64,000 bases of DNA from positions 1,600,882 through 1,664,881 of the forward strand of contig OZ241858.1 of NCBI GenBank assembly GCA_965203035.1, read 5' to 3'. A model generated the notes under the pieces. That model was not told the origin of the DNA. It made no database searches and was given only the letters and a program-made list of their open reading frames with translations. The translations under genes and the position numbers were made by a program. The stretch is from Candidatus Spongiisocius sp. (GTDB taxonomy: Bacteria > Actinomycetota > Acidimicrobiia > Spongiisociales > Spongiisociaceae). This document shows positions 3,613-36,934 of the stretch, piece after piece (the stretch's first letter is position 1; the number at the start of each line of letters is the position of its first letter).

Positions 3613-3614
3613 CG

Positions 3615-6600
3615 TCAGGAGTCCGACAGGGATGCGGTGAGCGGCTTGATGTGCAGGTTCACGTCCGGCTCCACGTCCCGCAGCGAGCGGTTGGCGCGGA
3701 ACTTGCGCTGGTGGGGCGAGTCGAACTCCTCCTCGAGTATCTCCCGGAGCAGGCGTCCGGGGCCCCTGCCCGACTCGTACTTCTGGTACTTCACGGCGCT
3801 GTTGACGATCTGGTAGTGCTCCACCACCGCCAGCCACGAGTCGAGCAGATCGACCACCCGGGCAGCCACGCTCTGGCGCCGATCCTCTCGCTCCGCCTCG
3901 TCATCCAACGGTTGGCTATCCACTCGTTCCTGGAAGAGTTCCCGCAGCCGTTGCTCGACCGCGGCCCGCACGGTCGTGAGCGAAGTGACACCGCCGGGCG
4001 GCGTCAGGACCGGTTGGGCGTGGCGGGCGTATCCGACCAGCGCGCCGGCCATGCCCCGGTCGAGGGCGCGCGCCGAGAACGGCGTGACGCTCGACGCCTC
4101 GACGGGCCGGTAGAAGGTCTCGTGGTAGTGGCGGAACCGTTCGTAGTGGGACCGGTCGCGAGGCTTGTGGACGTTGAGCAGCGTGACCACCAGTCCCGGC
4201 TTGCGGTCGTCGCGGCCTACGCGGCTGGTGGCCTGGATGTACTCGGCGTGGGTCTTGGGCTGGCCGAGCACCACCATCAGCCCGAGGCGGGGAATGTCGA
4301 GGCCCACCGAGATCATGTTGGTGGCGATGGCGCTGTCCACCCGATCCCTCTCGTGCGCGCCGCGCCCGAGGCGGCGCCGTGCCTCGGCCACCTTGGCGGT
4401 GGGAACCCGAGACGTCAGCTCCACGACCTCCGAGAAGGTCCGGCGATCCCGGAACAGGCCCTCCTGGTAGTTCTGGCCGATGCGCCTCCGTCCCCCGGAG
4501 GCCTTGACGGTGTTGCGGACCTCCTCCTCGAGGATGCGCCTCGCCCCACCCAGTTCGCGAAGGCTGTTGAAGTAGCCGAGCACGGTCATGTACGGATCGG
4601 CCGGGTTGTCCTCGTTGCGGTGCCCGCCGGAGTCCCGGTAGGCGCGCTCGGCCGCTCCCATGAGGGCCAACCAGACGCGACGCATCAAGGTCTTCGGGTT
4701 CCGGCCCGGTGACGCGATGCCGAGATAGAGCCGGCCGGGTACCTGATCGTTCGGAACGATCTCGGCGAAGAACGAGTCGCGCCGGTCCGGTCCAGGAGGC
4801 GGGAAGATCCGGGTGTTGGATCGGGCGAACAGGGCTTGGATCTGGTCCTGAGCCTGGCGCACCGTGGCGGTGGAAGCCACGATCTTGGGCAGCACGTCAG
4901 GGGTGGAGGCGTCTCCCTGATGATCGGTACCGGCGGCCCGCACGCACAGCGCCTCGATCACAGTCTCGTACAGCCCGGCCATGGTGCCGAGGGGCCCGGA
5001 TATCAGGTGCAGCTCGTCCTGGATCACCAGGTCGGGCCCGGGGAGCGGCCGCCCGAGGGGCTGGCCCTGCTTCGGGTCGGCGGCGCCGTAGAACCCGGCT
5101 TCGTCATAGCGATCCGCCCCGCCGAGCAATGCCCCGGTCTGGGCCGTCCACGGAAGCGAGGCGAACTTGTCCACGGTGGCGATCAGGAAGGCGGGAAGGC
5201 GGCGGTAGATGGGCTCGTCCACGCCCAGGATCGGCAGAGGGCGGTCCCCGCTGAAGTCGCACTCGAAGTCGGCGCAGACGATACGAAGCTCGGTCGGTGT
5301 GTCATCGTCGGGCCTTAGATCGAACGACGCCGGCTGGAAACGGGTGTCGCACCACGGGCAACTCTCCAAGGGGATGGGCAACGGCTTCCCCGTCGGGTCG
5401 GCCTTGAACCGGATGGTCTTGGACCGGGCCGAGTCCGACCGCCCATCGCCCTTGCGGCCCATGATGTTCGGGGTAGCCGCCTTGCCGACCCACAGGCCGA
5501 TCTCGAACGGCCAGACTCCGTAGCGCTCAGGGTCAGCCTCGCGTTCGAGTTCGAGCGCGCAGACGAGACCGGCCGCGCGGGCTAACTGGTCGAGCGTGAG
5601 CAGACGCAGCGTGTAGCGCATGATCACAGCGACCCCGGCGCCGTGCCTGCCGTCCTGGCCGGGGTTGCGGAGGCGCCTCAACACTATGGAGAAGGCGGCA
5701 AGACCCAGGTATGCCTCGGTCTTCCCGCCGCCGGTCGGGAAGAAGAGCAGGTCGACGATCTTGCGATGGGAGTGGTGCGGGTCGCCGAGGCCGGGAAGGT
5801 TCAGCAGGATGAAGGCCAGCTGGAACGCCCGCCATCGCGGGGCCGGCTCGTCAGGCCCGAGCCGCTGGCGCAGGGCTCGGGCCACAGCACGGTTGGCCAT
5901 CCTGAAGGCGTCGAGGGCATCAGGATCGTTAGCGAGAAACTCGATGCCGCTCTCGATGCGGGCGGCGGCGATGCCGGCGTGACGCAGCAGCTCCTCTGCG
6001 GTCTCCCGACGGTCGCCGTTGTGCGCTCCGAGACCGTCGCGCTGCGCATCGATCCAGGATCGATAGTGGTCCACGAGTGGGTTCAGCGCTGCGGAGGCAT
6101 CCTCGCCGTCGGCCAGAGCGCCGAGGGCCTCCATCGACAACTCAACCTCCGGGATCTTCACGGGCTCGGTCTTGGCGACGGTCGCGCTGGGGATCCAGGC
6201 CGTGCGCAGCAGGCGGCAGTCCCCATGGACCATCTCCCACTCGGCGGACACGCCGTGACCGACGGCGTACTCGGGCGTGTCGGCGTAGTGGAGGTCGGCA
6301 ACCCGGTCGTCCCACTCCGCAGCCGCCATCCCGCGGGGGTCGGGCCGGGGAACGAAGGACTCGTTGCATGTGACTTCGAGTTCCGCCTGGAATGCGTAGG
6401 CTCGGTCGGCAACTCCGGCACCAGCCGGCTTGCTCGGGACGGGCGGCCGATTGTTCACGAGAAACACCGACACCGACCGGGTTCCACGGGGGAGAGCGGC
6501 TAGACGGCGGCCGTGGATCGGCCTGGAGACGACATGCAGCCGCAGACCGCCGGACGCCGGAACCCGGTGATCGGGAGGGTCCGAGAGGTCCACCCGCACG

Positions 6601-7100
6601 GTTCGCTCCTGCGCCCTCCTCCGCCAGACGGATAGCGGTTTGCCTTCCGCATCCTCCCCCTCGCCAGGCGTGTAGTCGCCCCAGCGAACCGTCACTTCGA
6701 GTGCGCCGGTGTCCTCGGACACGAGGAAGCTCAGACCAATCGAGGACGGGAAGAAGCCCTTCTTCGCCGCCCGCCGTTCGTCGGCGGACTCCTCGACCAG
6801 CCCGGCGGTGTCCGGGACCTCGTCGAGGGAGTCGTCCTCGTCAACGTCGCTCCGGTCCTCGAACGGCGTGTCCGACGGGATCAGGAACCCGGTCAGGTAC
6901 CAGTTCGACGGTCTCCTCCAACCGGGCAGTAGTTCATCGGCGAGGTCGTGACCGGCGCCTGGTCCCACAAGGTCGAGCTTCAGCGCCTCGACCAGGTACT
7001 CGCGCACCTGCGCTGAGTCGGCGAACGCGAGTGACGACGGTGGGGAGTCAGCGATCATGCGGATGTACTGTAGGCAGAGCGCCTGACACGGAACAGCCAA
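3615..7100 (-). CDS. drmA: DISARM DrmA, DExH-box helicase (1161 aa)
   Basis: Walker A 'FFPTGGGKTEAYLG', DExH 'VIQDELHLISGPLGT', C-terminal helicase motifs. TTG start at 7100, with an in-frame stop 2 codons upstream. Confidence 0.8.
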   Translation of the reverse strand: MAVPCQALCLQYIRMIADSPPSSLAFADSAQVREYLVEALKLDLVGPGAGHDLADELLPGWRRPSNWYLTGFLIPSDTPFEDRSDVDEDDSLDEVPDTAGLVEESADERRAAKKGFFPSSIGLSFLVSEDTGALEVTVRWGDYTPGEGEDAEGKPLSVWRRRAQERTVRVDLSDPPDHRVPASGGLRLHVVSRPIHGRRLAALPRGTRSVSVFLVNNRPPVPSKPAGAGVADRAYAFQAELEVTCNESFVPRPDPRGMAAAEWDDRVADLHYADTPEYAVGHGVSAEWEMVHGDCRLLRTAWIPSATVAKTEPVKIPEVELSMEALGALADGEDASAALNPLVDHYRSWIDAQRDGLGAHNGDRRETAEELLRHAGIAAARIESGIEFLANDPDALDAFRMANRAVARALRQRLGPDEPAPRWRAFQLAFILLNLPGLGDPHHSHRKIVDLLFFPTGGGKTEAYLGLAAFSIVLRRLRNPGQDGRHGAGVAVIMRYTLRLLTLDQLARAAGLVCALELEREADPERYGVWPFEIGLWVGKAATPNIMGRKGDGRSDSARSKTIRFKADPTGKPLPIPLESCPWCDTRFQPASFDLRPDDDTPTELRIVCADFECDFSGDRPLPILGVDEPIYRRLPAFLIATVDKFASLPWTAQTGALLGGADRYDEAGFYGAADPKQGQPLGRPLPGPDLVIQDELHLISGPLGTMAGLYETVIEALCVRAAGTDHQGDASTPDVLPKIVASTATVRQAQDQIQALFARSNTRIFPPPGPDRRDSFFAEIVPNDQVPGRLYLGIASPGRNPKTLMRRVWLALMGAAERAYRDSGGHRNEDNPADPYMTVLGYFNSLRELGGARRILEEEVRNTVKASGGRRRIGQNYQEGLFRDRRTFSEVVELTSRVPTAKVAEARRRLGRGAHERDRVDSAIATNMISVGLDIPRLGLMVVLGQPKTHAEYIQATSRVGRDDRKPGLVVTLLNVHKPRDRSHYERFRHYHETFYRPVEASSVTPFSARALDRGMAGALVGYARHAQPVLTPPGGVTSLTTVRAAVEQRLRELFQERVDSQPLDDEAEREDRRQSVAARVVDLLDSWLAVVEHYQIVNSAVKYQKYESGRGPGRLLREILEEEFDSPHQRKFRANRSLRDVEPDVNLHIKPLTASLSDS

Positions 7101-7306: not shown

Positions 7307-7507
7307 ATGACCACGACATATCACATGACGCGTGAGGAGCTGTGGCAGGAGATGGAAGCTCGTCTTGAGGAGGAGCGGATGACCGTCGAGGAGTTCCGCG
7401 CCGAGGGCGAGGCGGACACGCTCACCGATGCCGAACTACGCGAGCTCTGGTTGATGTACAGGCCACTCCTGTTCGACGATGAAGAATCCCACTGGGAGGA
7501 TCGCTAG
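7307..7507 (+). CDS. small acidic protein P1 (66 aa), paralog of P2
   Basis: Shares 'EGEADTLTDA' and the flanking pattern with the next ORF. Strongly acidic. Its stop overlaps the GTG start of P2. Confidence 0.5.
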   Translation: MTTTYHMTREELWQEMEARLEEERMTVEEFRAEGEADTLTDAELRELWLMYRPLLFDDEESHWEDR

Positions 7508-7695
7508 TGGCCGAAGTAAGGATCGTCACGAACGAACAGATGATCGAGGAGGTCAAGAGCATCCTTGAGGCTGAGCACATGACCTTCGAGCGTTTCGTCT
7601 CCGAGGGGGAGGCAGATACGCTTACCGATGCTTTCCACAGGGATCTATGGCTCGACTATCGCGAGTGGATCCGAGACTGGATCAACGACACATGA
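7507..7695 (+). CDS. small acidic protein P2 (62 aa), paralog of P1
   Basis: GTG start overlapping the P1 stop. 'FERFVSEGEADTLTDAFHRDLWLDYR' aligns with P1. Its stop overlaps the ATG of the next gene (ATGA). Confidence 0.5.
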   Translation: MAEVRIVTNEQMIEEVKSILEAEHMTFERFVSEGEADTLTDAFHRDLWLDYREWIRDWINDT

Positions 7696-8387
7696 CACAG
7701 TCGTTACTCCGTCCGGCCTCCGAATCCTTCGCCGATCGACTCAACAGAGTGGTCGCGGCAGCGCTAGAGACCGATCTGCGGTTCGTGGCCAGCGTGGCGA
7801 GCAACGGTAGGCGTGCGAACGTTCGAGCCTCCGCAGTTCCGAACCGCAGATCCGACGGGTTCCCTCTGGTTCGCCTTAGCGACATACCTGGAGCACCGGC
7901 GATGTTTCTTCTGCCGAGGTTCTTCGTCGAGATCAGTCCTGAGACCGCCCGCCTTCGGGTCGCGACCTCCACCATTGGGTTGTGGGTGGACATCACCGGC
8001 GGCCGCAAGCCACCACGTCCGTTGATACGGGTCGAATACGATCGTCGACTCGATACGGGCCATGGGGCGGCCGCGCATGTTCATGTTCACGCTCACTCGC
8101 CTGAACTGGCCTGGCTTTACGGCTCCAGCGGTCTGGCTGCCCCCAATCTTCATGCTCTGCACTTCCCGGTTGGTGGTAGGAGGTTCCGACCGACACTCGA
8201 GGACTTCCTGCTCTTCCTGGACAGGGAGAACATTTTCACCCATTTCAAGGAAGGATGGAAGACCACCGTGCTGCGATCACTTCGAGAATGGGAGGAAATC
8301 CAGGCGAGGTCGACGGTACGGCAGTATCCCCGATTGGCAGCCGATGCCCTGCGAGATATGGGTTATAGAGACCTGAGGTGTGGTTAG
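7692..8387 (+). CDS. hypothetical protein P3 (~231 aa, His-rich segment 'HVHVHAHSPE')
   Basis: Internal Met of track ORF 7647..8387, coupled to P2 by an ATGA overlap. No recognised domain. Third gene of the plus-strand operon embedded in the DISARM locus. Confidence 0.45.
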   Translation: MTQSLLRPASESFADRLNRVVAAALETDLRFVASVASNGRRANVRASAVPNRRSDGFPLVRLSDIPGAPAMFLLPRFFVEISPETARLRVATSTIGLWVDITGGRKPPRPLIRVEYDRRLDTGHGAAAHVHVHAHSPELAWLYGSSGLAAPNLHALHFPVGGRRFRPTLEDFLLFLDRENIFTHFKEGWKTTVLRSLREWEEIQARSTVRQYPRLAADALRDMGYRDLRCG

Positions 8388-8830
8388 CAGTCGGACTGAT
8401 TCGACCATCGTTCCGTCGTGTTGTACGCAGAGAACAAGGCGGGAAAGAAGCCCTTCTTCGCCGTCCGCAGTTCCTCGGCCAATTCCTCCGCTAACCCGGC
8501 TTTCTCCGGCACCTCGTCGAGGGATTCGTCCTCGTCCAGGTCGCTGCGGTCCTCGAACGGCGTGTCCGACGGGATCAGAAACCCGGTCAGGTACCAGTTC
8601 GACGGTCTCCTCCATCCGGGCAGTAGTTCATCGGCGAGGTCGTGACCGGCGCCGGGTCCCACCAGGTCGAGCTTCAGCGCCTCGACCTGGTGGGAGCGCA
8701 CATCCGACGAATCGGCGAACGTCAGCGACGACGGCGGGGAGTCAGCGATCATGCGGACGTACTGTAGGCAGGGCGCCTGACACGGAACGGCCAACCCTCA
8801 GGGAGGCATGCACGGGCCACCGCTGCGGCA
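8384..8830 (-). pseudogene. degraded 5' copy of drmA (first ~115 codons plus ~10 nt upstream), roughly 85% identical to authentic drmA by eye
   Basis: Track ORF 8384..8794 translates to 'MAVPCQAPCLQYVRMIADSPPSS...GFFP', matching the drmA N-terminus, then diverges to a stop. Nucleotides 8700-8830 align with 7020-7120. Confidence 0.7.
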
Positions 8831-8892
8831 CGGGAGTGATGGCCGACTATCTAGAGGAATACCGAGGCCGCCGCCTGGGAAACCCAACATCA

Positions 8893-9336
8893 TCAGCGAC
8901 CGGCAGCTCTGGCTGCCTTTTCGATCCAAGTGCCAAGGTTATCGTAACCCTTATGCCATTTCCAAAGATAGAAGGGGTAACCGCGTGGAATCCTGCCGCA
9001 ACGCGAGCTAGTTTTCCCGGCGAGATCTTTGATCTTACTTATATCGACCCCCAGAAGGCCATTGCCACGTTCTTTGCTCGCCTTGATCTCGTACTTGACC
9101 CATTTGCTCCTGCACGTGTGCGACCCCACAAGAACTACTGTGACCGAAGTTCCCTTCAGTTGTTCATCAATCCAGTTCTTGATCGCCTCGTCTCCGCGCT
9201 GTTTGATCTCTTCGAATTCGGCCTTGTCAATGAATCCGGACGCTTCCTTGCCCTGAGTAACCCAACTATTGCGGACAACCATCGCTCGCGAGACATCGTG
9301 GTCGTACTCGAAACTGAAGAATACCCGGCGAGCCAT
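8893..9336 (-). CDS. TIR-like domain protein (DUF1863 / ThsB-like), 147 aa
   Basis: 'RVFFSFEYDHDVSRAMVVRNSW...SVTVVLVGSHTCRSKWVKYEI' matches the DUF1863 TIR-like pattern (FISY..D......W......S..V.vL.S......S.WV..Ei). Local GC ~50% versus ~68% in flanking DNA. Confidence 0.6.
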   Translation of the reverse strand: MARRVFFSFEYDHDVSRAMVVRNSWVTQGKEASGFIDKAEFEEIKQRGDEAIKNWIDEQLKGTSVTVVLVGSHTCRSKWVKYEIKASKERGNGLLGVDISKIKDLAGKTSSRCGRIPRGYPFYLWKWHKGYDNLGTWIEKAARAAGR

Positions 9337-9355
9337 CTATCTTTCTCCTGTACGA

Positions 9356-9751
9356 TTAGCTGACTAGAACAGCAACTAGAACACCTATTGCTACAGCCAT
9401 ATAGAAGCTGACAAGTGTCACAGAGAACATCGAGGAGCGCCATGCCAGTTTCGTGCCCTTGAATCGGTTTGTTCTCATCGAGAAGTCGATCTCCTCAGGC
9501 TGCAGGAGACGCACGTGATCGTACAGAGCACGGTACAGTCGTTCTTGGCGAAGGAAATAGGCGTCTAAACCCCAGAACACCAGCGTAGGGAGAAGGCCAA
9601 CCAGCGCCCAGTCGCTTTCGCCCTGCCGCGAAACCAGCACGAGTAGGGCGGAAACCAGCACGACGCTCCACCCCTTCAACATGAAGGAGTTGAAGGCCAT
9701 GCGGTTGATGACACCCTGGATCAGTTCCAAGTGCTTCAGCTTGGATTCCAT
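9356..9751 (-). CDS. small integral membrane protein (~131 aa, 3 predicted TM helices); possible SLATT-like effector
   Basis: Start chosen at 'MESKLKHL' with GGGAGGG 6 nt upstream. Hydrophobic segments 'WSVVLVSALLVLV', 'WALVGLLPTLVFWGL', 'FSVTLVSFYMAVAIGVLVAVLVS'. Sits 19 nt upstream of the TIR-like gene on the same strand, in the same low-GC block. Confidence 0.55.
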   Translation of the reverse strand: MESKLKHLELIQGVINRMAFNSFMLKGWSVVLVSALLVLVSRQGESDWALVGLLPTLVFWGLDAYFLRQERLYRALYDHVRLLQPEEIDFSMRTNRFKGTKLAWRSSMFSVTLVSFYMAVAIGVLVAVLVS

Positions 9752-9844
9752 CCACACCCTCCCGGCGGCGAACCTCATGCGCCTGACGTGACTGCGACTC
9801 CGGCGCGTGAGCCCAAGTCTAGTGACTGCTTTGCCAGAGGTTAC

Positions 9845-10180
9845 GGGGCGAAGGGATCGCTGTGGACGGAGCGGGACGAGTCTCCGGCGCTGGGAACGCC
9901 GTGCCGGATTTGGCGGTCTTGGTGGGCTTGGCGAGGCCGGCGCGGGCTGCTTCGGCGGTGCGTTGGGCGTTGAGTTCCAGGAAGCGAGCCAGCACCTGGT
10001 CGCGGACGGCGTCGGGCCATCGGTAGCGGTAGGACTTCTTCGTCCTGCCCGAGGTCTCCCCATCGGTCTCGTAGTCGAGCAGGTGCTCGCAGTCCGTTGG
10101 GATGTCGGTCCAACCGTGGGCGTCAAGTACTGCTCAATCCATGGCGGTGCGCAGACGACGGAGTTCGTCGATCTCGGGGA
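9845..10180 (-). pseudogene. degraded 3' copy of drmMI (last ~100 codons) with an in-frame TGA
   Basis: Minus-strand translation '...AVLDAHGWTDIPTDCEHLLDYETDGETSGRTKKSYRYRWPDAVRDQVLARFLELNAQRTAEAARAGLAKP' matches the drmMI C-terminus. Nucleotides 9930-10180 align with 13870-14110. Confidence 0.65.
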
Positions 10181-10562
10181 TCGTTCGAGTGTTCTCAGCG
10201 ACTGCACGCAGGGCCCACCCTGACGCCGCGTGGCTCGTGCGTTGTGACGCCCGCGAGCGGATGTTTGATGTGGTGCTCCCGATTCTGGTCGACATCGCTG
10301 GCAGCCGAGACGTCGATGTGACCCCGGCCCCGTTCTGGCGACCCACCCAGACGTCGCTGTACGGCGACCGGGTCACCTAACCCGGAGAGATGGACCTGCT
10401 CGTGCGTCCCAGAACGACGACAGCCCGAACCCACGGCCCCGCGGCCCTCGGCCTGTAGGCCAAGACGCGGCCACTTCCCCACGTAAGGAGACCAGAATTG
10501 CTACTCCGTCCACCCCCTGCAAACCCCTCGATCCGTGAAGAGTCAGCGCTAGTCTTCGACGA

Positions 10563-12058
10563 GTGACCGAAGGAACACTGTCTGAGATCGCTGCTTGGCT
10601 GGACGAGGAGGCCGACTGCCAAGAGTTCTTCAGCCGTATTAGTGTTTCCCTCAACCGGCGCTTCGAAGTAGACGATCCGCTGGCTCCTCTCCCGTGGGCC
10701 TTCGACTACAGGCTTCTTGCGAGGTCCGACGAACGGTATGAAGGTCATGGTCCCTTCGGCCCGCTGTTGGAGACCACTGATGGACAACATCCGCCCCCAC
10801 TTGACCAGATTCCTGAAGAGGCAGTTTCTCTGTGGGAGAAGCTGAGCGGACTTGTCACGCATCCGTATTTGAAGGCGCGCCTGAACGACCTGATGTGGGA
10901 GCGACGCTGGTCTGACAGCCCCCACTTGTACGCTGGTACAGCTATCGATGCATATCTGGCACTGGGTCCTCCGGTAGCCGACGGGATGGAGTATGTGAAC
11001 GCTCTCTCTCGCGCGGCTGGGCTGGCACGGCAGATCAATGATGGTCAGCGGCGCCAGCTCGTCGTTGAAGCCGCTCTGCGCCGCGCCCAGGCAGAACTTG
11101 CCGGTGCCGAAGCGAAGCCAGGGATCGCCCTCCGTCTATTGGACGTAGTCCTCGATGATGACGGTGAGGGAGTCAGGGATAGAGTGGCCAGCTTGTTGGA
11201 GCAGGCTAACAAAGTATTCGATGATCCGTGGATTAGGAATAAAGTCATTGACCGGCAGATAGCTTTCTCATCTGGTGAGCGAGAACGGCGAAAGGAGCTG
11301 GAACTCCAAAAGGTCAATACTTGGATCCGGCGCGCCTCGACCGAAACCGGAATGAGGCGGCGGATTTTCTTGATGAGCGCACTGGAGCACGCCCGCACTT
11401 ACGGCTTCCGTGGCCAAGCGGAGCAGATCCGGCGGGAGATACAAGAGATCGAATTCAGTGAGGACAGCATGCAGAGCATCTCTGCCACAGTTGAGGTGCC
11501 AAGTGACGAAATCGAGAATACGATCTCTCAGATCAGCTCCGCTGGTACGTGGGCTGGCTGCTTGGATCGCCTGCTGTTCTTCGGGCCTCTGAGTGGCAGT
11601 CTGAAAGAGAATATCGAGCATGTCCGCCAGCAAGCAGAACAGTTCGTGGTCCAGCACCTGGTCCCCTCTGAAGTCTTAGGTCCTTGGAATGAGACTGTTT
11701 TCGTTGCTCATACTGAAGAACAGAAACAAGAATACAATCTGTCTAATTTTGAATCAATAGGTATCCAGATGAATAGCTATATCGTGGCTGCGGCTCTTGA
11801 GGCTATACAGGTCACCCACGGAATTCCCGCGAAGGACGAATTAGAGGACTTCTTCTCGACACCTTTCATTGACGAAGGCACCGCCGAACGGATAGCGGCG
11901 AGTGTCCTGCACTATGTCGTAGGCCAGTTTGATGAGTGTATCATGGTTCTTATTCCTCGGATCGAGAGGACAATACGGCAACTCATCCGCGAGATTGGTG
12001 CGCCAACCTGGTTGGAACCTAGATCAGGCGGATTCGGGAAACAGCGTTCGCTATACCG
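10563..12058 (+). pseudogene. N-terminal ~498 codons of a ~577-aa gene interrupted by ISL3 insertion (GTG start)
   Basis: Track ORF 10563..12122. Its last ~20 codons read into the IS inverted repeat. The ORF resumes after the 8-bp target duplication at ~13499. Confidence 0.6.
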
Positions 12059-13490
12059 GCTCTCCGCGTTTCAGTGGGGAGTGAGGGTGGTCAATAGGTC
12101 CCAGTTGGGTTTGCCGGCGTAGAGGAGGGCGCGGATTCGGTAGTTCGCGAAGTTGCGGAACCCGAAGGCTGTGCGTTTGACGCGTTTGATGAGGTTGTTG
12201 AGGGCTTCGGTGGGTCCGTTGGTCACGCGGGAGATGTGCCAGTTGGTGATCTGGGGGGTCCAGCGGGCGATGGTTCGTCCTAGTCGGTTGATCTCTGGTG
12301 GACAGGATTCGTCTTGGAGGTCGTCAGCCAACTGGAGGGTGTAGGAGAGCGCGGTGGCGATGCTGTCTATCTGGTAGATGCCTCGGACGGTTTCTTTGGC
12401 GTGCCAGGCGGTGCGGACTTCGCCGTGGGGGTCACCGGCGTCCAAGAGGCCACGGAGCCGTGTTTGGCCACCGTCGCTGATGCGTTCGGATGCGGCGGTG
12501 AGGAGCCGCCGTATCCGATACAGCGGATCGCCTTTTCGGCCTCTGTGCCCGAGGGTTTCGTTCTGGACCCGGCGCCGGACTTCGTCGAGCCGCTGGTTAG
12601 CCAACCGGATGACATGGAACGGGTCTGCGACTTGTGAAGCGTGGGGCAGCACCCGGTCATATGCGGTCCGATAGGGGCCGGAGAGGTCCAACACCGCCCA
12701 CAGGATCTGATCCCGCCATTCCTGGGACTGTTCCCGAAACCAGGATGCGGCGCTTTCTGCTGTCCTGCCAGGGACTATGTCCAACAGCTGGCGACCTCCC
12801 ACATCGACCACAGAGGTCGCCCACTGGGGGATACGCCACCTTCCCTGACGCCAGAACAACGTCTCATCGACCCCCACAGCTTCCACAGCCCCGAAACGGG
12901 AAGTGTCGGCTTCCAGCAGCGCTTCACCCCACCTTGCCACCTCTCCGTTGACCGTATGCCACCCACAACCCAACTCCGCAGCGACCTCTTGGACCGAACG
13001 GCCCAACCGCCCCACCTGGACGGTCGCCCACCTGGCCGCCCGAGACGTCAACAATCCACGCACAGGCGCAATCCCCGCATCCTGTTCGATAAACGAGCTG
13101 ACCGCACACTCAGAACTCGGGCACATCCAGCGCCGCTTCCGCCACCGCAGACGAACCGGCCGACCGAACGCCGGCAGATCCACCAACACCACCGTCCGCT
13201 CGCCCTTGGACCACACCCCTCCGCCACAGCCCCCACACATCGGACGGGACAGGCGAGACCCGATCACAACCTCCAACGGCGCCCCATCGCCCCCGTCGTC
13301 GATCCCGACCAACTCCACGTCGCCCAGACCCACCAACAACTCACACATGCGCGTAGGATCAGCTTCCACAGGGGTCCTCCTGCCTCGGATGTCATTGCTG
13401 AACTCCGATTATGGAGGACCCCTCCTCACTTCTAGTGGATTCCGAACCCCCGCACAGATCCCCCCACTCCCCACCCATTCGCGAAGAGCC
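12058..13490 (-). mobile_element. ISL3-family insertion sequence (~1.43 kb) with 8-bp target-site duplication GCTATACC
   Basis: Terminal inverted repeats GGCTCTCCGCGTTTCAGTGGGGAGTGAGGG (left) and GGCTCTTCGCGAATGGGTGGGGAGTGGGGG (right, reverse complement). GCTATACC repeated directly at ~12050-12058 and ~13491-13498. Confidence 0.85.
12071..13369 (-). CDS. ISL3-family DDE transposase (432 aa, GTG start)
   Basis: Characteristic C-terminus '...TNGPTEALNNLIKRVKRTAFGFRNFANYRIRALLYAG' plus the 'GVDE' region. Confidence 0.9.
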   Translation of the reverse strand: MEADPTRMCELLVGLGDVELVGIDDGGDGAPLEVVIGSRLSRPMCGGCGGGVWSKGERTVVLVDLPAFGRPVRLRWRKRRWMCPSSECAVSSFIEQDAGIAPVRGLLTSRAARWATVQVGRLGRSVQEVAAELGCGWHTVNGEVARWGEALLEADTSRFGAVEAVGVDETLFWRQGRWRIPQWATSVVDVGGRQLLDIVPGRTAESAASWFREQSQEWRDQILWAVLDLSGPYRTAYDRVLPHASQVADPFHVIRLANQRLDEVRRRVQNETLGHRGRKGDPLYRIRRLLTAASERISDGGQTRLRGLLDAGDPHGEVRTAWHAKETVRGIYQIDSIATALSYTLQLADDLQDESCPPEINRLGRTIARWTPQITNWHISRVTNGPTEALNNLIKRVKRTAFGFRNFANYRIRALLYAGKPNWDLLTTLTPH

Positions 13491-13498
13491 GCTATACC

Positions 13499-13734
13499 AA
13501 CTCCTTGTCCATCTGGACGGCCACATGGACAAGGACTGGCTCAGGTACCTCAAAACTTTGCTTGTCAACCCGCTCGGCCCAAACCTGCGCAACGTGCATA
13601 TGCACGGTTTGGCACAACAGGGAACACGTGAACAGGCTGCAGTGCTAATCCATGCGGTCGTGTTTCTCGCGTCGTTGCGAGTGAGTATCCAACCGGGGGA
13701 CGGTGCTGACGTTGAGGGAGATAGCATCCACTAG
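13499..13734 (+). pseudogene. C-terminal ~78 codons of the IS-split gene, carrying an Rx4H HEPN-like motif 'NLRNVHMHG'
   Basis: Reading continues '...RSLY|QLLVHLDGHMDKDW...' directly after the right target duplication. Part of track ORF 13411..13734. Confidence 0.5.
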
Positions 13735-13769
13735 CCTGATTGATTGGTCGGTGTCCGCGGTGAGCCAGA

Positions 13770-16700
13770 CTAGAGGTCGGTCTCCCACAGTGTCCTGGAC
13801 GTAGTGGTGCCGGTGAACGCCCCATCAGAGCGCCGACGCTGCGGCGCGTTCTCCCCACTCATGGGCTTTCTGAGGCCGGCGCGGGCTTCTTCGGCGGCGC
13901 GTTGGGCGTTGAGTTCTAGGAGGCGGGCTAGCACCTCGTCGCGGATGGGATCGGGCCAGCGGTAGCGGTAGGGCTTCTTCTTTCTGCCCCAGGTCTCCTC
14001 GTCGATTTCGTAGTCGAGTAGGAACTCGCAGTCCGTGGGGATGTCGGTCCAGCCATAGGCGTTCAGCACAGCTCGATCCATGGCTGTGTGCAGACGACGG
14101 AGCTCGGTGATCTCGGCATCGTTCTCGTAGGGATCGTGGAAGCGGTTGTAGATCTTGGTCATCCCCTCGCCATAGCGAACCATGAGCGCCGCCCGGAATT
14201 CATAGTACTCACTGCCGACTGCTTCAAAATCGTAGCGGCTCCGCCAGTTCTCAGGAAACGGAAAAGTCTCGAAACAATCCGACGGCGTATAACGCAGGTC
14301 GTCCTTCATTGAAGATCCAAAGAATAGTGCCCAAGCTTCGTGAGGTCGTGCCTGTAGAGCGGAAAAGGCGGCGTAGTTCTCGACCGGATAGACGTTTAGC
14401 GTGTGTCCATACACCATATTTGACGGCAGGAACGCAAACTGTACATGGTTGCTAACCTGAGAGTTAGCTAGTACACGCGCTAATTTGTCGACTCTGCTAT
14501 AGAGTTCCTTTGCATGATGAACGAACTGCCACCAGATGGACGCTCGTTTGCCATGACCTGACTTACTGATTCTCGCCGACTCCATCCGCTCTGGCCTAAC
14601 TGACTCCTCTATAATCGAAAGGAGATGAGGATATAGGTAGCGGCATTCCTCCAGTGCCATTTCTCCGAAGTTAATTACGAATCGGTGATGTGATTGTGTC
14701 GCGCTAGTGTTAAGTTCCTTGCCTCCAATATAAGGGAATATCACGTTGCCATAGTGGGGATTCTCTCTCAGGAGATCTCTCATTGTCTCTATCGGTGTAG
14801 CAAGGCCTCCGCGCCCTGCATCGTCGAAGGAAAACCCGCCAATCCCAAGAATATAGCTGCCAACGAAGCTACTTCCTATATTGGTTCGAAGAGGTAGTGG
14901 GTCATCGTGGCCACCTCTATTGGACAAGAAGGCGGTAATCTTGTCAACGACCTGCCCATCTATGTATCTATGACCGCCGTATTGGCCCTTGCTGATGTGG
15001 ACGATACTCACGACTACTGCGGCTAGCCCCGGCCAACTGACGCGTCGACGAGCGTTATATATCTGACCGCCCTTCTTACAGATCCAACGTAACCCGCTGG
15101 CACGTGTATCTCCTTGGGCAATAGTGTTGGTGGCGATTAAACCTAGTGTCCCATTCCGGCGGATCAGATCGTAGGATCGCCGATAGAAGTGAGCGACTAC
15201 ATCGCACTTACCTGTGCTCTCAGGATGGGTCAGCCTCAACCACTGTGTGTAGCCGCGCACGTTAGCGTTGACAACTGTGTTATGGCCACCGAACGGTGGG
15301 TTGCCGACTATGGTGTCAAACCCTGGGTTGGGCCGGTCGAAGACTTCGGGGAACGCAATCTGCCAGTGGAACGGGGCAAGTGGTGGATCACCGTACCGTA
15401 GTTCGGTCAGCCATCCCTTGTACTGACCGGCGGACCCGTTGAGCACCGCGGACGCGAACTTCTTGCGGCGCTCCTCCCGAGCCTTGGGCTTGGACTCATC
15501 GAAGAAGGCGGCCAGTACCAGGTCACCGAGCATCTGCACCTCGTCCGTCTCGTCCCGCGCTTCCCGCCACCAGGCTCGTCGTTCCCAGTCGGACACGGTG
15601 TCATCCGCCTCGCGGATTCGACGGCGCAGATCGTTGGCGCGATCGAGGTGTTCCTGTCCTCGCAGTGCTTCGAAACCGGCCTGGAAGATGGGGGCTTTGC
15701 CCTTCCAATGGAAGGTCCGTGTCTGGGGTATCGAGAGTCCCACCAGCGAGTCGCCGTGTCGCAGGGCGTGATCCAGGAAGGTCAATGGATGGTCCTTGGC
15801 CAGGGTGATCAGCCAGAGTGACAGCTTGGCGAGATCCACGGCCTTGGGGTTGCGGTCCACTCCGTAGAGGCAGCGCTGGGCCACCAGCCGCCGGGCGAAG
15901 ATCTGCTCGTCCTCGTCGGGCGGGATCTCGGGCATGGCGTCGTGGGCGCGCCACGATTCGATGAGTTGATCGGCGAGTTGGCGGCAGGCCTCCACCAGGA
16001 AGGCAGCCGATCCCATGGCCGGGTCGCACACCTTGAGGTCGAGAATCTGATCGGGACGGACCGGGCCGCCGGCCTCGGTAGCTAGCCGATCCAGGATGGG
16101 TTCCAGCGCCTTACGGACGATGGGCTCGGTGAGCTCGCGGGGCGTGTAATGCGAGCCGGACTTTCGGCGTTCCTCGCTCGGCTGCAGCACCATGGCGCCT
16201 GCCGCTACCAGGTCCGGAGTGGCGTTGCGATCAAGAACCGAATCGAGCGCCGCATGCATCTCGTCGAGGGAACCAGACTCCCGAACCGCCTTACCCACCT
16301 TTGTGGTGAGCGTGCGGTCGGTACGGTCCCGGATCCACTTGACCCGCTTGGACGGTTCCTGTCCCAGTAGGGCTTCGAGGTTCACCGTGGCGGGAGCGCC
16401 ATGCTTCTTGGTGGCCTTGATGGCAACGCTCCGGCCTGAGGCGGTCTCGAGGCGGAAACCCATCATGGTCTCGTAGACCGAGCCGATGTGCTCCACATCA
16501 AGCGCCCGGTAGGAGATGCGCTCGGCGTCCAGGACGATGAGCTTCTCCAGCACCCGGTGGATCGTGCCGTCCCCGATGCGCGGCGGCTCGATCCTCTCCA
16601 ATGTCTGCCGCGGGCCGAAGTCACGGCCTTCGAGGAACGGGTAGCGATCGGGGCGGAAGAGATCGCCGTACTTGGGCGCCATTGACATCTGCCCGGCGTT

Positions 16701-17834
16701 GGCGCCGTCGTGGACCATGCGCCAGAGGGCCAGGAGTTGGGCGTAGGCGCCGTAGCGCTGGTCCATGGTGTCCGGGTGCTGGGAAGCGTCGGCTCGCAGC
16801 CGCTCGTAGAGACCGGACACCGAGTAGGCGCCCAGGAAGGTCTCGTCCTGGGGCAGCAGGTCCCGCTCCTCGGCGTACAGCAGGTAGACGAGGCGCAGTA
16901 CCACCGTCAGCAGTCCCCGGTAGATCTCGTCGGGATCCTCCGCAAGCCAGCGCCCGAGCAGCCGACCTTCAGACGCGTCATGAGCGGCCTGGAAGCCTCG
17001 CAGCAGTTCGTAGAGTGCGTGGAGCACCTGTTCGGCCAGGCGCTCGCTCACCTCGTTCTGGAACTTGCGGCTGTCCTCCAGTAGCGCCGCCAGGCGCTTC
17101 TCCCGCGGCACGCTTAGCAGGCGCGTCTCTCCGAGAAGCTCGCGCATGGCTGAGCAGATCGGTCGGCCTGCCGTCTGGACCATGTCGCTCACCTGGAAGT
17201 CCAGCCATCCCGAACTCTCACCCCGGGGCGCGGAGACGAGGCGCAACGTTCCGCCATTGAATAGGAGCCCCGCTGGAACGCCCGTGTTTCGCAACAGCCG
17301 CTCCATCCGGCCATGAGGTGACAGGTCCAGACCGCCGCCGGAGACAGCGCGGTCCAGGTCCTCGCCGGGTTCGCACACGCTGACCAGCAGTTGCCATGGA
17401 GAGGGTTCGTCCTCTTGCTCGTCACCCTTAGGAACGGCGGGCCGCACCGGAGCCCGGAGCGGTTCGGAGCGAACTGCGAAGTCGGGCCGGAACGCCTGGC
17501 CGGATTCCGGCAGCGGAAGCTCCAGGTCCGTGGGGATCGGCGCCTCAGCGGTGCCGGCATAGCCCTTCGGGGAGAACCTCCAACCGAGCACTTTCGCGGC
17601 GAACTGCCGGAAGTCCGGAAGTTCGGTCGTGGTGCCGGCCGGATCGGGAGCGCCGTTCTCAACCCACTCGCGGAGTAGCTTCTGGCCTGGGATATCCCGG
17701 AGGTTCAGGATCACGCCCGCCTTCACGAGCGCAGGCGCCGACACCACCAGGCCGGTAGGTCGGACGAACCCGATCCACTCCAGATGGTCGATTACCCGCT
17801 GGTCACGCTTCGCCATCAGTTGGTCTCCGGCCAC
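13770..17834 (-). CDS. drmMI: DISARM DrmMI, N6-adenine DNA methyltransferase (Eco57I-like), ~1350 aa
   Basis: Motif IV 'TIVGNPPFGGHN' and AdoMet-binding region. Large size typical of DrmMI. The start region overlaps the drmD stop (alternative start 17816). Confidence 0.85.
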   Translation of the reverse strand: MAGDQLMAKRDQRVIDHLEWIGFVRPTGLVVSAPALVKAGVILNLRDIPGQKLLREWVENGAPDPAGTTTELPDFRQFAAKVLGWRFSPKGYAGTAEAPIPTDLELPLPESGQAFRPDFAVRSEPLRAPVRPAVPKGDEQEDEPSPWQLLVSVCEPGEDLDRAVSGGGLDLSPHGRMERLLRNTGVPAGLLFNGGTLRLVSAPRGESSGWLDFQVSDMVQTAGRPICSAMRELLGETRLLSVPREKRLAALLEDSRKFQNEVSERLAEQVLHALYELLRGFQAAHDASEGRLLGRWLAEDPDEIYRGLLTVVLRLVYLLYAEERDLLPQDETFLGAYSVSGLYERLRADASQHPDTMDQRYGAYAQLLALWRMVHDGANAGQMSMAPKYGDLFRPDRYPFLEGRDFGPRQTLERIEPPRIGDGTIHRVLEKLIVLDAERISYRALDVEHIGSVYETMMGFRLETASGRSVAIKATKKHGAPATVNLEALLGQEPSKRVKWIRDRTDRTLTTKVGKAVRESGSLDEMHAALDSVLDRNATPDLVAAGAMVLQPSEERRKSGSHYTPRELTEPIVRKALEPILDRLATEAGGPVRPDQILDLKVCDPAMGSAAFLVEACRQLADQLIESWRAHDAMPEIPPDEDEQIFARRLVAQRCLYGVDRNPKAVDLAKLSLWLITLAKDHPLTFLDHALRHGDSLVGLSIPQTRTFHWKGKAPIFQAGFEALRGQEHLDRANDLRRRIREADDTVSDWERRAWWREARDETDEVQMLGDLVLAAFFDESKPKAREERRKKFASAVLNGSAGQYKGWLTELRYGDPPLAPFHWQIAFPEVFDRPNPGFDTIVGNPPFGGHNTVVNANVRGYTQWLRLTHPESTGKCDVVAHFYRRSYDLIRRNGTLGLIATNTIAQGDTRASGLRWICKKGGQIYNARRRVSWPGLAAVVVSIVHISKGQYGGHRYIDGQVVDKITAFLSNRGGHDDPLPLRTNIGSSFVGSYILGIGGFSFDDAGRGGLATPIETMRDLLRENPHYGNVIFPYIGGKELNTSATQSHHRFVINFGEMALEECRYLYPHLLSIIEESVRPERMESARISKSGHGKRASIWWQFVHHAKELYSRVDKLARVLANSQVSNHVQFAFLPSNMVYGHTLNVYPVENYAAFSALQARPHEAWALFFGSSMKDDLRYTPSDCFETFPFPENWRSRYDFEAVGSEYYEFRAALMVRYGEGMTKIYNRFHDPYENDAEITELRRLHTAMDRAVLNAYGWTDIPTDCEFLLDYEIDEETWGRKKKPYRYRWPDPIRDEVLARLLELNAQRAAEEARAGLRKPMSGENAPQRRRSDGAFTGTTTSRTLWETDL

Positions 17835-20800
17835 AGGTATACGAGACCCACCGGCTCGACCCGCTTCACGTGCACGTCGTAGAAGTCGCGCACCCGGGCC
17901 GGCTCGCCTGCCAGATCCTCGTCGAACTGGGCGAGCCTTCTGCGCCAGTGCCGGATGTCGGCGTTGAGCTGCCTCGTTTCCTGGGCGTTGAATCCGAAGG
18001 TGAGTTGCTTCTGGTCGCGTTCGTAGCGTTCGAGTTGGGCGACCACTTGGGCACGGTGCCGCTCGAGGGTCTCTCGCAGCGACTGTTCCTCCCGCTCCCC
18101 GCGTTCGGCAAGCCGTTGCTCAGCTATTGCCGCGAATTCCGCCGCCCGAGGCTCCAGTTGCGGACGGAGATCAGCGATGTCTTGGGCGGCGCCAGCGAGC
18201 AGCCTACGGCGGATCACCTGGTCGGGTTCGCGGGCGGGGGAGTCCAGTGACTCGTCAAGGAGCCTCATGGTCCGTTCCCGTGCATCCCGGGCGTAGGCGC
18301 GCAGCGGTCCGGAGCGCCGTTCCGGTTCGCTCCAGCGGGCCGCCACCGGCACGATCTGCTCGTGCAGACGCTCGGCGCCCCGGCCGTACAGTGACAGGCG
18401 CCCGAGCAGGATGACGCGCGGGATCGAGTCCTTCGTCTGGGCGAGGCACGCCCGGGACAGATCGTGATAGATGAACCCCTGGGCGCGGAACCGGGCCAGC
18501 AGCCGCTGCGCCACCCGCTGCTCCAGATGCAGGTGCACGGTCTGATCGTCGAGCCGTCCGGTGTCCTCGAACACGACGGGCCGGAGGGGCGCGTCGCGCC
18601 GCCAGTCGGGGACCTTCTGGTCGATCCGGCGGGGCACGCGCAGGGAATCGAGGGTGGAGGTCCAGCTGGGATCGGTGGCTGCCCGCTGCTCCAGAGCGGG
18701 GAACGTCCACACCCGGTGGCCGTTGTCACCGGCGCTCTCGGCGAGTTCCGAGGCTCCGAGCAGGCGGAGGGAGCAGTTGATGGCCTGGCGGAACGGTTCC
18801 GCCGAGAACCGGACCCAATCCCGTGACTTCGCGAGGAGCGCCCGGCAGCGCTCGACCTGGTCCTTCAAGTCCTCGCGCCGTTCGCGGGCCGCCTCTATCT
18901 CCTCGGCGGCGGCAAGGGTGCTCTCGCCCTCGGGAGACTCCGCCTCGATACGGCGCCTCAGGGCGTCCGCGTCACTGTGACGGATGCCATCCCGGATCAG
19001 GCGTTGCTCCACCGCATCCTCGATCACCTTCGGAAGGCCACCCAGCTCTTTCTTGATGGTCTCGGTCTTGCGGACCAGCACTTCGAGCACCCGATCCTCG
19101 ACCCGCTGCGGCAGCACGAAGTAGTGGCAGGTCACTTCCGCGGCCGGTTGCAGCTTGCGGTCGATGCGACCGTTGCGCTGCTCGATACGGCCCGGATTCC
19201 ACGGCAGGTCGAAATGGAACATGTCCCGGCAGCGGGCCTGCAGGTTGAGTCCCTCACGGGCGGCGTCGGTGGCTATCAGGATTCGCAGGGGCTCGTCGGC
19301 CGGGTCGGCGTTGAAGCGGCGCTGTATCTCGCGCCGGCGCGCCGGTCTGGTTCGCCCGTCGATCACGCCTATCCGCTCGTCGGCCCGGTCGGTGCCGAAG
19401 ATGGCCTGCTCCAGGGTCGACTTCAGATACCGCTTGGTGCCCTGCCGGTTCTCAGTGAAGATCAGCACGCGCCTATCCGTCCATGCCGGCGGGGGACCGG
19501 TGAGCGGTGCACCGAACTCGGGAAGCGCCGGGCACTGGTTGCGGCGTATCCACTCGATCAGCCACCGGGTCTTGGCATCCGGAAGGTGTTTGGTCTCGTC
19601 CGCGATCTCCTGCATGCGTAGTAGGAGAGCCTGCTCACGTTCCCAGGCCGTTGTGTCGGGATGTTCCGACGGACGGGCGGCCGCCGTGATCTCTCTGACC
19701 TGGTCGGTCTCGTCGGCGTCCTCATCCTGCCTGGTCCACTCGGCCCTCTCATCGTCGGCATCAGGTGATTGCACGAAAAGGTGCGTTTGGTCGGGGTCGA
19801 TTTCCGGTCGAGCATCGGTTTCTTGCTGGGCTTCCTTCCACTGACGGAACACGGTGCGGCGATGCACCACGAGGGTGCGGGCGAACGCCTCGATCGAAGA
19901 CAGCAACCGCTGCTGCAAGCCCACCACCATCAACCCGGCGGCATGCCGGACGCGGCTGGACTCTGATAGGAAACGTTGCTCGCGAGCTGTCCGGTACTCG
20001 TCCAAGAGGCGGGAGAGCTGCAACTCGGGGGCGTCATCGGGTAGGCCGGCGATCTCGATCCGCTCGACGTTGCGCTTGGGGAAACCGCCTTGGAGCTCGC
20101 GGATGTCCTCCTTGAGGCGCCGGACCATCACGGGTGCAAGGTCGGTCTTGGGACGGGTCACCTTGACGCCGCGGGTGAATCTGTAAGGATCGAGCAGCTC
20201 CAGCAGAGTGGAGAAGCTGTTGGAGTGGCCGTTGTGTGGCGTGGCCGACAGGAACAGCCGATGCTCGAACCTGTGGGCGAGATCACGCACCGCCCGGGTG
20301 AACTTGGTCTCGATGCCGTACCGGCCGCCCGAGGAAGGAGCGGCGTGGTGGGCCTCGTCGAGGATCAGCAGGCTTCCGGTCCGGTGGTCACCCAGCCACT
20401 CCCGCATGGGGTCCGTGTAGGACGGGTCGATCAGCAGCCGGTGCGAGATCAGGAACCGGCTGTGGGTTCGCCAGGGATTCACACCGAAGCCGCGTTCTCG
20501 CCGCATTTTCGATACGTACCGCCGGTCGAGCACCTCGAACACGAGGCCGAACCGGTCCTCCATCTCCCCCTTCCACTGTTCCAACATCGACGGGGGCGCC
20601 GCCACGACTATGACCTTCACCTTGCGGCGCAGCAACAGCTCGCGGGTAATCAGGCCCGCCTCGATGGTCTTGCCCAGGCCTGTGTCGTCTGCGATCAGCA
20701 AGTTGACACGGGGGAGTAGCAGCGCCTTGCGAAGGGGCTCCATCTGGTAAGCGTCGATAGTGATCCCGGCCCTGAAGGGCGCCTGGAACAGGGTGGGATC

Positions 20801-21061
20801 GGTGGCCGTGGTGCAGTTCCAGCGCAGCGTGTTCAGGAACGCCGCGAACTGGTGCGGCGGATCGAGACCCTTGGCGGCCAGGCCGTCCCATCCCGCATCC
20901 TCGATGATCATGCGGTCCGGTTCGTACTCCCAGAACACATCGAGCGACTGGCCCTGGTTGTCGTCGTCCACACACGCCAGCCGCACCAGCGGCGACTCTC
21001 CGGGGTTGTCCGACCTGGCGACCTCTTCCACAATCCAGCGCCGAGATCGAACCTGGACCAA
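17816..21061 (-). CDS. drmD: DISARM DrmD, SNF2-family helicase (1081 aa)
   Basis: 'LIADDTGLGKTIEAG' (Walker A), 'LLILDEAHHAAP' (DEAH), C-terminal helicase 'VLIFTENRQGTKRYL'. Confidence 0.85.
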   Translation of the reverse strand: MVQVRSRRWIVEEVARSDNPGESPLVRLACVDDDNQGQSLDVFWEYEPDRMIIEDAGWDGLAAKGLDPPHQFAAFLNTLRWNCTTATDPTLFQAPFRAGITIDAYQMEPLRKALLLPRVNLLIADDTGLGKTIEAGLITRELLLRRKVKVIVVAAPPSMLEQWKGEMEDRFGLVFEVLDRRYVSKMRRERGFGVNPWRTHSRFLISHRLLIDPSYTDPMREWLGDHRTGSLLILDEAHHAAPSSGGRYGIETKFTRAVRDLAHRFEHRLFLSATPHNGHSNSFSTLLELLDPYRFTRGVKVTRPKTDLAPVMVRRLKEDIRELQGGFPKRNVERIEIAGLPDDAPELQLSRLLDEYRTAREQRFLSESSRVRHAAGLMVVGLQQRLLSSIEAFARTLVVHRRTVFRQWKEAQQETDARPEIDPDQTHLFVQSPDADDERAEWTRQDEDADETDQVREITAAARPSEHPDTTAWEREQALLLRMQEIADETKHLPDAKTRWLIEWIRRNQCPALPEFGAPLTGPPPAWTDRRVLIFTENRQGTKRYLKSTLEQAIFGTDRADERIGVIDGRTRPARRREIQRRFNADPADEPLRILIATDAAREGLNLQARCRDMFHFDLPWNPGRIEQRNGRIDRKLQPAAEVTCHYFVLPQRVEDRVLEVLVRKTETIKKELGGLPKVIEDAVEQRLIRDGIRHSDADALRRRIEAESPEGESTLAAAEEIEAARERREDLKDQVERCRALLAKSRDWVRFSAEPFRQAINCSLRLLGASELAESAGDNGHRVWTFPALEQRAATDPSWTSTLDSLRVPRRIDQKVPDWRRDAPLRPVVFEDTGRLDDQTVHLHLEQRVAQRLLARFRAQGFIYHDLSRACLAQTKDSIPRVILLGRLSLYGRGAERLHEQIVPVAARWSEPERRSGPLRAYARDARERTMRLLDESLDSPAREPDQVIRRRLLAGAAQDIADLRPQLEPRAAEFAAIAEQRLAERGEREEQSLRETLERHRAQVVAQLERYERDQKQLTFGFNAQETRQLNADIRHWRRRLAQFDEDLAGEPARVRDFYDVHVKRVEPVGLVYLWPETN

Positions 21062-36713: not shown

Positions 36714-36934
36714 TACGTAGCGAACTTGACCGGCAGGGCTCACTTCTGGCTGCCGGCGCAGAGTCCGTTGTCGAGATCGGTCGAAGTGTCCGTCGTTTCC
36801 GGCAAACCCGAAACGGACAGGGGTAATGGGATTGGAGCCACCCCCATCGGTAGACGGCCGATGGACGCGCGGCAGCCTTCCATCGGTAAAGTTAACGGCC
36901 AGCAAGATGAGCGCGAGACCGAAGGTGTGATGGA

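Follow-up and report, generated by a model that had tools for sequence, protein, structure and literature searches.

Class 1 DISARM is defined by the presence of all five of DrmA, DrmB, DrmC, DrmD and DrmMI (PADLOC, PMC9252829), and the PDC families of candidate defence genes have been defined by their embedding in BREX, DISARM or type I restriction-modification (RM) systems (bioRxiv 10.1101/2024.01.29.577857, Payne et al. 2024). The same work reports 96.7% of embedded genes being co-oriented with the host system and shows that mutation of the motif histidine in HEC-08 abolished defence (bioRxiv 10.1101/2024.01.29.577857). DUF4209 proteins constitute the C6orf70 family of the HEPN superfamily, which carries a conserved Rx4-6H motif, and bacterial members occur in RM-related operons (PMC3710099, Anantharaman et al. 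2013). Both hits of insertion sequences (ISs) in defence genes and defence genes embedded in DISARM are already established. Here we analyse a 64-kb stretch of a Candidatus Spongiisocius genome (the window; coordinates are window positions unless a locus is named), in which an ISL3-family IS splits a PDC-S39-type HEPN gene lying in the gap between drmMI and drmA of a class 1 DISARM operon. We consider it very likely that an active IS was inserted recently into this defence candidate, resulting in an allele that is null with near certainty. The setting of the HEPN gene in a DISARM gap is of an already known type, because PDC candidates are defined by such embedding.

The interrupted gene and the IS comprise the following features:

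10563-12057, + strand: 5' part of the disrupted PDC-S39-type gene (codons 1-498 and one base), with the DUF7380 region and the first half of the predicted HEPN domain
11964-11966, + strand: codon of the invariant E468, on the 5' fragment
11976-11978, + strand: codon of the invariant R472, on the 5' fragment
12050-12057: left copy of the 8-bp target-site duplication GCTATACC, directly abutting the IS end
12058-13490, - strand: ISL3-family insertion sequence of 1,433 bp, assigned from the transposase family matches, the inverted repeats and scaffold L007
12058-12083: terminal inverted repeat at the low-coordinate end, GGCTCTCCGCGTTTCAGTGGGGAGTG
12071-13369, - strand: intact ISL3 transposase gene (432 aa), with the Pfam domains DDE_Tnp_ISL3 and Zn_ribbon_ISL3
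13465-13490: terminal inverted repeat at the high-coordinate end, its reverse complement being GGCTCTTCGCGAATGGGTGGGGAGTG
13491-13498: right copy of the target-site duplication GCTATACC, directly abutting the IS end
13499-13734, + strand: 3' part of the disrupted gene (codons 499-576 and stop), with the second half of the predicted HEPN domain and the catalytic-type motif
13588-13605, + strand: Rx4H HEPN motif R529-N-V-H-M-H534 (RNVHMH), recognised from family conservation

On the + strand of the window GCTATACC occurs exactly twice, both copies adjoining the IS ends, and the probability of an 8-bp match at two fixed positions by chance is about 1.5e-5. The 26-bp inverted repeats are imperfect, with 21/26 positions matching, and exact alignment thereby bears out what an earlier note on this DNA had claimed, i.e. 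an ISL3 insertion with inverted repeats and a clean 8-bp duplication. Inverted repeats of ISL3 elements measure about 15-39 bp in ISfinder's description, and an 8-bp target-site duplication is a trait of the family. The transposase matches Pfam DDE_Tnp_ISL3 (PF01610) with 3.5e-56 and NCBIfam transpos_ISL3 (NF033550) with 1.2e-83 and 281.3 bits, the cut-off being 180. L007, a scaffold from an ENA metagenome, measures exactly 1,433 bp, is 100% identical to 12058-13490 and is bounded by both inverted repeats; its length and its ends suggest a repeat that the assembler could not place. All of the ISL3 hallmarks tested, i.e. DDE transposase, inverted repeats, 8-bp duplication and mobility as judged by the L007 copy, were found. 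Directly upstream of the transposase start there is an imperfect hairpin of 25 nt (13370-13394 / 13399-13423).

Removal of the IS and one repeat copy in silico yields a continuous ORF (open reading frame) of 576 aa, and in the alignment of its product with the intact homologue P0002 (575 aa, 72% identity) no gap is present at the junction, confirming the earlier proposal that the IS splits a single gene of ~577 aa. Intact copies of the gene were sought in related genomes and found in the loci L001, L003 and L006, which carry uninterrupted orthologues of 63-72% identity with both flanks collinear at the DNA level. The window segments 10555-12053 and 13501-14300 are collinear with L001 6374-7872 and 7879-8672, so that L001 represents the empty site. 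The ISL3 insertion, its boundaries and the ORF it interrupts are thus directly visible in the DNA. Both gene fragments are still open and conserved, the transposase is intact and an identical IS copy is found elsewhere, which together suggest that the insertion is recent.

The IS is located after codon 498, within the HEPN domain, which spans about residues 385-556 in the structure model, and it would therefore split the HEPN domain itself. This corrects the earlier note in one respect: the cut falls inside the nuclease domain rather than between it and the remainder of the protein. E468 and R472 are thereby parted from R529-N530-x3-H534, the former staying with the 5' fragment and the latter with the 3' fragment. 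The 5' product consists of a 498-aa fragment followed by 21 IS-encoded residues and lacks R529, N530 and H534; the 3' fragment comprises 78 orphaned codons and lacks its own start codon. This arrangement most likely amounts to a null allele. We also observed an ATG inside the right IS end opening an in-frame 107-aa ORF (13411-13734, +) that reads into the orphaned HEPN C-terminal fragment.

The domain search of the restored protein returned DUF7380 and DUF4209 from Pfam, both above their gathering cut-offs: DUF7380 with 5.3e-11 at residues 63-164 and DUF4209 (PF13910) with 32.0 bits (gathering cut-off 22.3) at residues 467-546. The PADLOC model PDC-S39 (PDLC05012) is matched with 8e-36 by residues 63-545, covering profile positions 74-583 of 615. 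With a limit of E<=1e-3 an exhaustive profile search finds 4,199 representatives of the family, of which 647 reach E<=1e-30; most are 560-600 aa in length. In an alignment of the best 150 diverse representatives E468 and R472 are present in 150/150, R529 and H534 in 148/150 and N530 in 145/150; N527, R529, N530, H534 and G535 are each found in 145-148/150, with gaps as two of the exceptions at each position. AlphaFold2 predicts an all-helical protein (pLDDT 82 for the whole chain), with an alpha-helical HEPN bundle in the region given above, and a profile search of PDB sequences retrieved no solved relative of the restored protein. The DUF4209 match, the conservation of the motif and the model make the assignment of RNVHMH as a HEPN motif a well supported prediction, and the reading of RNVHMH as an Rx4-6H signature, put forward in the earlier note, agrees with the DUF4209 score, with the classification in PMC3710099 and with the conservation of its R, N and H. 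As judged by sequence, motif and predicted fold, the restored protein is a C6orf70-type HEPN protein and a PDC-S39 member.

The surroundings of the gene are those of a defence locus, comprising a class 1 DISARM operon and further genes and gene remnants in the gap between drmMI and drmA:

17816-21061, - strand: drmD, SNF2 helicase (PADLOC DrmD 3.1e-298)
13770-17834, - strand: drmMI, class 1 DISARM adenine methyltransferase (PADLOC DrmMI 1,252.9 bits; Pfam Eco57I, MmeI_Mtase and MmeI_TRD)
9828-10175, - strand: 3' remnant of a second, diverged drmMI (last ~112 codons, 63% aa identity), recognised as direct repeat D1 (85% nt) and by tblastn
9356-9751, - strand: PDC-M50A, membrane protein (PADLOC PDC-M50A 6.7e-48)
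8893-9336, - strand: PDC-M50B, ThsB-like TIR protein (PADLOC ThsB 7.5e-58 and PDC-M50B 1.8e-48; Pfam ThsB_TIR)
8393-8794, - strand: 5' remnant of a second drmA (codons 1-144, 73% aa identity), recognised as direct repeat D2 and by tblastn
7307-8387, + strand: antisense module with acidic ORFs at 7307-7507 and 7507-7695, followed by a 246-aa ORF at 7647-8387
3615-7100, - strand: drmA (PADLOC DrmA 1.5e-267)
1789-3837, - strand: drmB, given as the longest ORF (PADLOC DrmB 1e-77)
1001-1984, - strand: drmC, given as the longest ORF (PADLOC DrmC 4.7e-78)

All five core genes of class 1 DISARM are present and intact on one strand (-) with strong PADLOC scores, and Pfam MZB and PLDc_2 are additionally matched in the drmA-drmB-drmC region (1001-7100). 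The defence context assumed for the interrupted gene in the earlier note is supported by the PDC-S39 match (8e-36) and by its place inside this complete operon. The HEPN gene runs antisense to the operon, which is the minority orientation compared with the 96.7% of co-oriented embedded genes, and it is convergent with drmMI, the two stop codons being separated by 35 bp in a tail-to-tail arrangement. Read from drmMI towards drmA, the gap contains the HEPN gene with the IS, the drmMI 3' remnant, PDC-M50A/B, the drmA 5' remnant and the antisense module. PDC-M50A/B constitute a second embedded defence candidate, here co-oriented with DISARM. The remnants form direct repeats with the resident genes, with 85% identity over 255 nt and 89% over 107 nt, and a weaker trace of the drmMI remnant (~34% aa identity) reaches to ~10364. 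The block from the drmMI 3' end over M50A and M50B to the drmA 5' end (8393-10364) looks like a piece of another DISARM locus that was recombined in.

The loci with the closest orthologues resemble the window in their DISARM genes, DrmA being ~80% identical in L001, L003 and L006 and DrmD 87% identical in L001 and L003, the loci that include drmD. The HEPN orthologue adjoins drmMI in L001 and L003 at the same position as in the window, and the L006 contig stops 244 bp past the orthologue, before a drmMI neighbour could be seen. Extra drmA 5' fragments are present in L001 and L003, and one to three copies of the antisense module in each of the three loci. L001, L003 and L006 thus represent one closely related DISARM lineage and do not count as independent associations. 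More distant homologues with 50-54% identity are located away from class 1 DISARM, e.g. in L004, L013, L014 and L016: the homologue in L004 adjoins TIR, PIN and NYN genes, that in L013 lies near AbiEii and a methyltransferase, and those in L014 and L016 have no obvious defence neighbours. In L017 the homologue adjoins genes for a DrmA-like helicase, a C5 methylase and the NYN candidate HEC-09. The HEPN gene of the window matches no Drm model and is encoded on the opposite strand, so it does not classify as a DISARM component, and the occurrence of homologues outside class 1 DISARM indicates, at the level of gene neighbourhoods, that the family is autonomous rather than a DISARM subunit.

Some further observations concern these loci. 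The same NYN-domain gene follows the HEPN homologue in L004 (10001-12710) and L017 (8001-10707; PADLOC HEC-09 8e-82 in L017), the L017 HEPN-NYN pair being located beside the DrmA-like helicase, the C5 DNA methylase and an HNH type IV-like enzyme, and the HEPN and NYN genes may form a recurrent pairing. In the DISARM gap of L003 (7745-9530, -) two genes of 432 aa and 132 aa have no Pfam or PADLOC match; the 432-aa product is unrelated to the transposase in the window despite its equal length. The homologues P0017 and P0018 (L013 ~11500-11900) show a frameshift just before the HEPN motif, which is kept in the shifted frame. The P0018 contig has 8x long-read coverage and its frame downstream of the frameshift is perfectly conserved; these frameshifts are probably long-read sequencing errors, although they may mark a real pseudogene. 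Recurrent HEPN inactivation was considered on the basis of these two homologues and rejected in view of the 8x coverage of the P0018 contig and the full conservation of the shifted frame.

The 5' surroundings of the HEPN gene differ from those in L001. There, the HEPN start codon is overlapped (GTGA) by an acidic ORF of 58 aa, of which the window (10555-10565 versus L001 6374-6385) keeps only the last three codons (TTCGACGAGTGA). Homology to L001 begins only 8 nt before the HEPN start codon; the 190 bp at 10365-10554 had no match among the fetched sequences. With the small ORF reduced to three codons, the native 5' context of the HEPN gene is gone. A small partner gene, adjacent and translationally coupled, as looked for in a toxin-antitoxin pair, is therefore present in L001 and absent from the window. 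A winged helix-turn-helix (wHTH) domain is carried N-terminally by most close homologues and is found neither in the gene described here nor in P0002.

Small acidic ORFs of this kind also head the antisense module, which consists of a 55-66-aa acidic ORF (motif EEFRAEGEADTLTD..LWL.YRPLLFD) followed by a protein of 232-246 aa. The 246-aa ORF and the small acidic ORFs have no match in Pfam, NCBIfam, PADLOC, PHROGs or PDB. Homologues of the module fall into 206 clusters, and the sources naming a taxon give Acidimicrobiia or Acidimicrobiaceae (metagenome-assembled genomes). Further sites are L001 4523-5697, L003 4693-7180, L006 4742-9830 and L020 9837-12969, where the module is seen as tandem diverged copies, both in DISARM gaps and, in L020, in an island of its own next to genes for NYN, Fic, PIN and helicase proteins. 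The module may represent an undescribed toxin-antitoxin-like or defence module.

The earlier note had also pointed to an AT-richer stretch at 11.6-11.9 kb. The dip is real, with a GC content of 0.445-0.465 at 11600-11899 compared with 0.555 for the whole gene and 0.665 for the rest of the window, yet it is not special to this copy, since the orthologues of L001, L003 and L006 have such a dip too, located at the corresponding relative position. The patch was considered as the mark of a foreign insert or as a recombination point; both readings were rejected because the orthologues share the dip, and by this comparison it is a property of the family unrelated to the IS. The lower GC content of the gene as a whole (0.555 versus 0.665) is typical of horizontally moving defence genes. 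A separate low-GC segment is found in the 3' third of drmMI (14200-15000, the MmeI_TRD region; 0.45-0.52 versus ~0.66 elsewhere), which suggests a swapped or fast-evolving target-recognition segment. Farther away, ~300 bp at 36400-36690 consist almost only of C and A on the + strand, the opposite strand being G-rich (GC skew -0.35 and AT skew +0.37 over 36001-37000). This stretch contains degenerate CCCCACAAC repeats, lies just upstream of a gene starting at 36935 and has no Rfam match; Rfam and tRNA scans of the window detected no RNA genes.

Taken together, we propose that a recently active ISL3 element transposed into a single-gene PDC-S39 candidate and thereby generated the 8-bp duplication. 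The intact 576-aa protein would combine an N-terminal alpha-helical repeat region (DUF7380), probably acting as a sensor or auto-inhibitory module, with a HEPN domain of the C6orf70/ERMARD (DUF4209) type at its C-terminus. If the protein works like the HEPN effectors characterised so far, a phage cue would lead to dimerisation, bringing together two R-N-x3-H motifs into an RNase site, which would cut cellular or phage RNA resulting in growth arrest, i.e. abortive infection. The gene would be an antisense cassette in the drmMI-drmA gap, where recombination with related loci would also have left PDC-M50 and the drmMI and drmA fragments. We infer the loss of function and the recency of the insertion from the state of the locus, and the RNase activity and abortive-infection function of the intact protein from its characterised analogues.

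Several points weigh against this proposal. The shortened N-terminal fragment could keep some activity, and with its native upstream region lost the gene may already have been non-functional, or only poorly expressed, by the time of the insertion. The evidence for the fold comes from predicted structures, PDCs are explicitly untested candidates (bioRxiv 10.1101/2024.01.29.577857), and the literature searched yielded no experiment on RNase activity or phage defence for PDC-S39, bacterial DUF4209 or DUF7380 proteins. It could further be argued that the intact HEPN domain serves for binding or regulation without being catalytic, like the HEPN domains of MtlR or of the sacsin type, and that the gene is an accessory or regulator of DISARM. 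The single conserved position beside drmMI that the closest homologues share and the N-terminal DNA-binding domain (HTH_20) of many homologues speak for such a role; however, R-N-x3-H-G together with E468/R472 is kept in nearly all 150 representatives, which is the pattern of catalytic HEPN domains, the homologues of 50-54% identity away from class 1 DISARM (L004, L013, L014 and L016) mark the family as autonomous, and the three DISARM-embedded copies stem from one DISARM lineage, so we hold a purely regulatory role to be quite unlikely. Wrong threading of a multi-copy IS into the locus during assembly is highly improbable: the stand-alone 1,433-bp scaffold in another metagenome does identify the IS as a repeat that can confuse assemblers, but a chimaeric join would not produce an exact 8-bp duplication of which one copy restores both the frame and the orthologous sequence, and the source contig is reported as 3.67 Mb.

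The earlier suggestion that the insertion was selected, the IS neutralising an auto-toxic HEPN gene, concerns the cause of the event rather than its outcome. HEPN effectors are commonly toxins (PMC3710099), the reduction of the 58-aa acidic ORF to three codons and the missing N-terminal wHTH make deregulation of the gene conceivable, and a frameshift shortly before the HEPN motif is seen in P0017 and P0018. Yet the insertion is a single event, made by an IS that is active elsewhere, into a DISARM gap that is a dispensable and insertion-tolerant target; the frameshift of P0018 is most simply explained as a sequencing error, and a gene deprived of its upstream region may just as well have been silent beforehand, in which case selection is not needed. 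One recent hit of an active IS in a gene that is not essential is expected to the same degree if the insertion was neutral, and we regard selection for neutralising the gene as unlikely. A wider version of the same idea views the drmMI-drmA gap as a dedicated cassette-exchange site, in which antisense cassettes headed by acidic ORFs are swapped, stacked and duplicated. The cassettes would include the unannotated 232-246-aa family and also the HEPN gene as it stands in L001. Recombination would find its homology arms in the small ORFs, at the 3' end of drmMI and at the 5' end of drmA, and the small acidic protein would be the cognate neutraliser or regulator of the effector encoded downstream of it. 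The HEPN gene would have lost this partner when the PDC-M50 block recombined in, becoming harmful and being rescued by the IS. We consider this sequence of events rather unlikely as a whole. The recent insertion of an active ISL3 element into a defence candidate is the explanation we prefer.

The locus provides a clean example of how a candidate gene for abortive infection is inactivated by an active ISL3 element, and relatives document the empty site. The conservation and predicted-fold data add to the evidence for PDC-S39 being a catalytic-type HEPN protein and nominate R529, N530, H534, E468 and R472 for mutation, and the reconstructed ORF and its intact orthologue P0002 are direct test material for the PDC-S39 family. 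The locus also shows the turnover of embedded defence cassettes in a DISARM operon, with truncated drmMI and drmA ends as footprints. These findings do not overturn current views.

Compared with described systems, the IS resembles other ISL3 elements of Actinomycetota, sharing with them a length of ~1.4 kb, a DDE_Tnp_ISL3 transposase with zinc ribbon and HTH and an 8-bp duplication. An annotated ISL3 element on a Microbacterium paraoxydans plasmid (NZ_CP064874.1, L019) has inverted repeats that likewise begin with GGCTCTTCG and contain GGTGGGG, being 25 bp long rather than 26 bp; the transposase in the window is only ~40-44% identical to its closest plasmid-borne relatives. The HEPN gene shares the Pfam match and the conserved Rx4H motif with HEPN proteins of the C6orf70/ERMARD type (DUF4209 / EMARD_N), whereas eukaryotic ERMARD is a membrane-anchored ER protein of other architecture and the protein described here is predicted to be soluble with a helical DUF7380 N-domain. 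With characterised HEPN RNases and toxins, i.e. Csm6, RnlA/LsoA, the HEPN-MNT toxin SO_3166, AbiV and HEC-08, it has R-x4-H and the defence-island context in common; however, identity is only 6-16%, and it is devoid of a CARF domain, an MNT partner and a Dmd-like partner. The operon has the same core set as other class 1 DISARM systems, but a 6.7-kb composite insert parts drmMI from drmA. PADLOC PDC-S39 (Payne et al. 2024) agrees with the gene described here in a near full-length HMM match and in forming a single-gene cassette inside DISARM, and this copy differs from it in being interrupted by an IS and in its antisense orientation to the host system.

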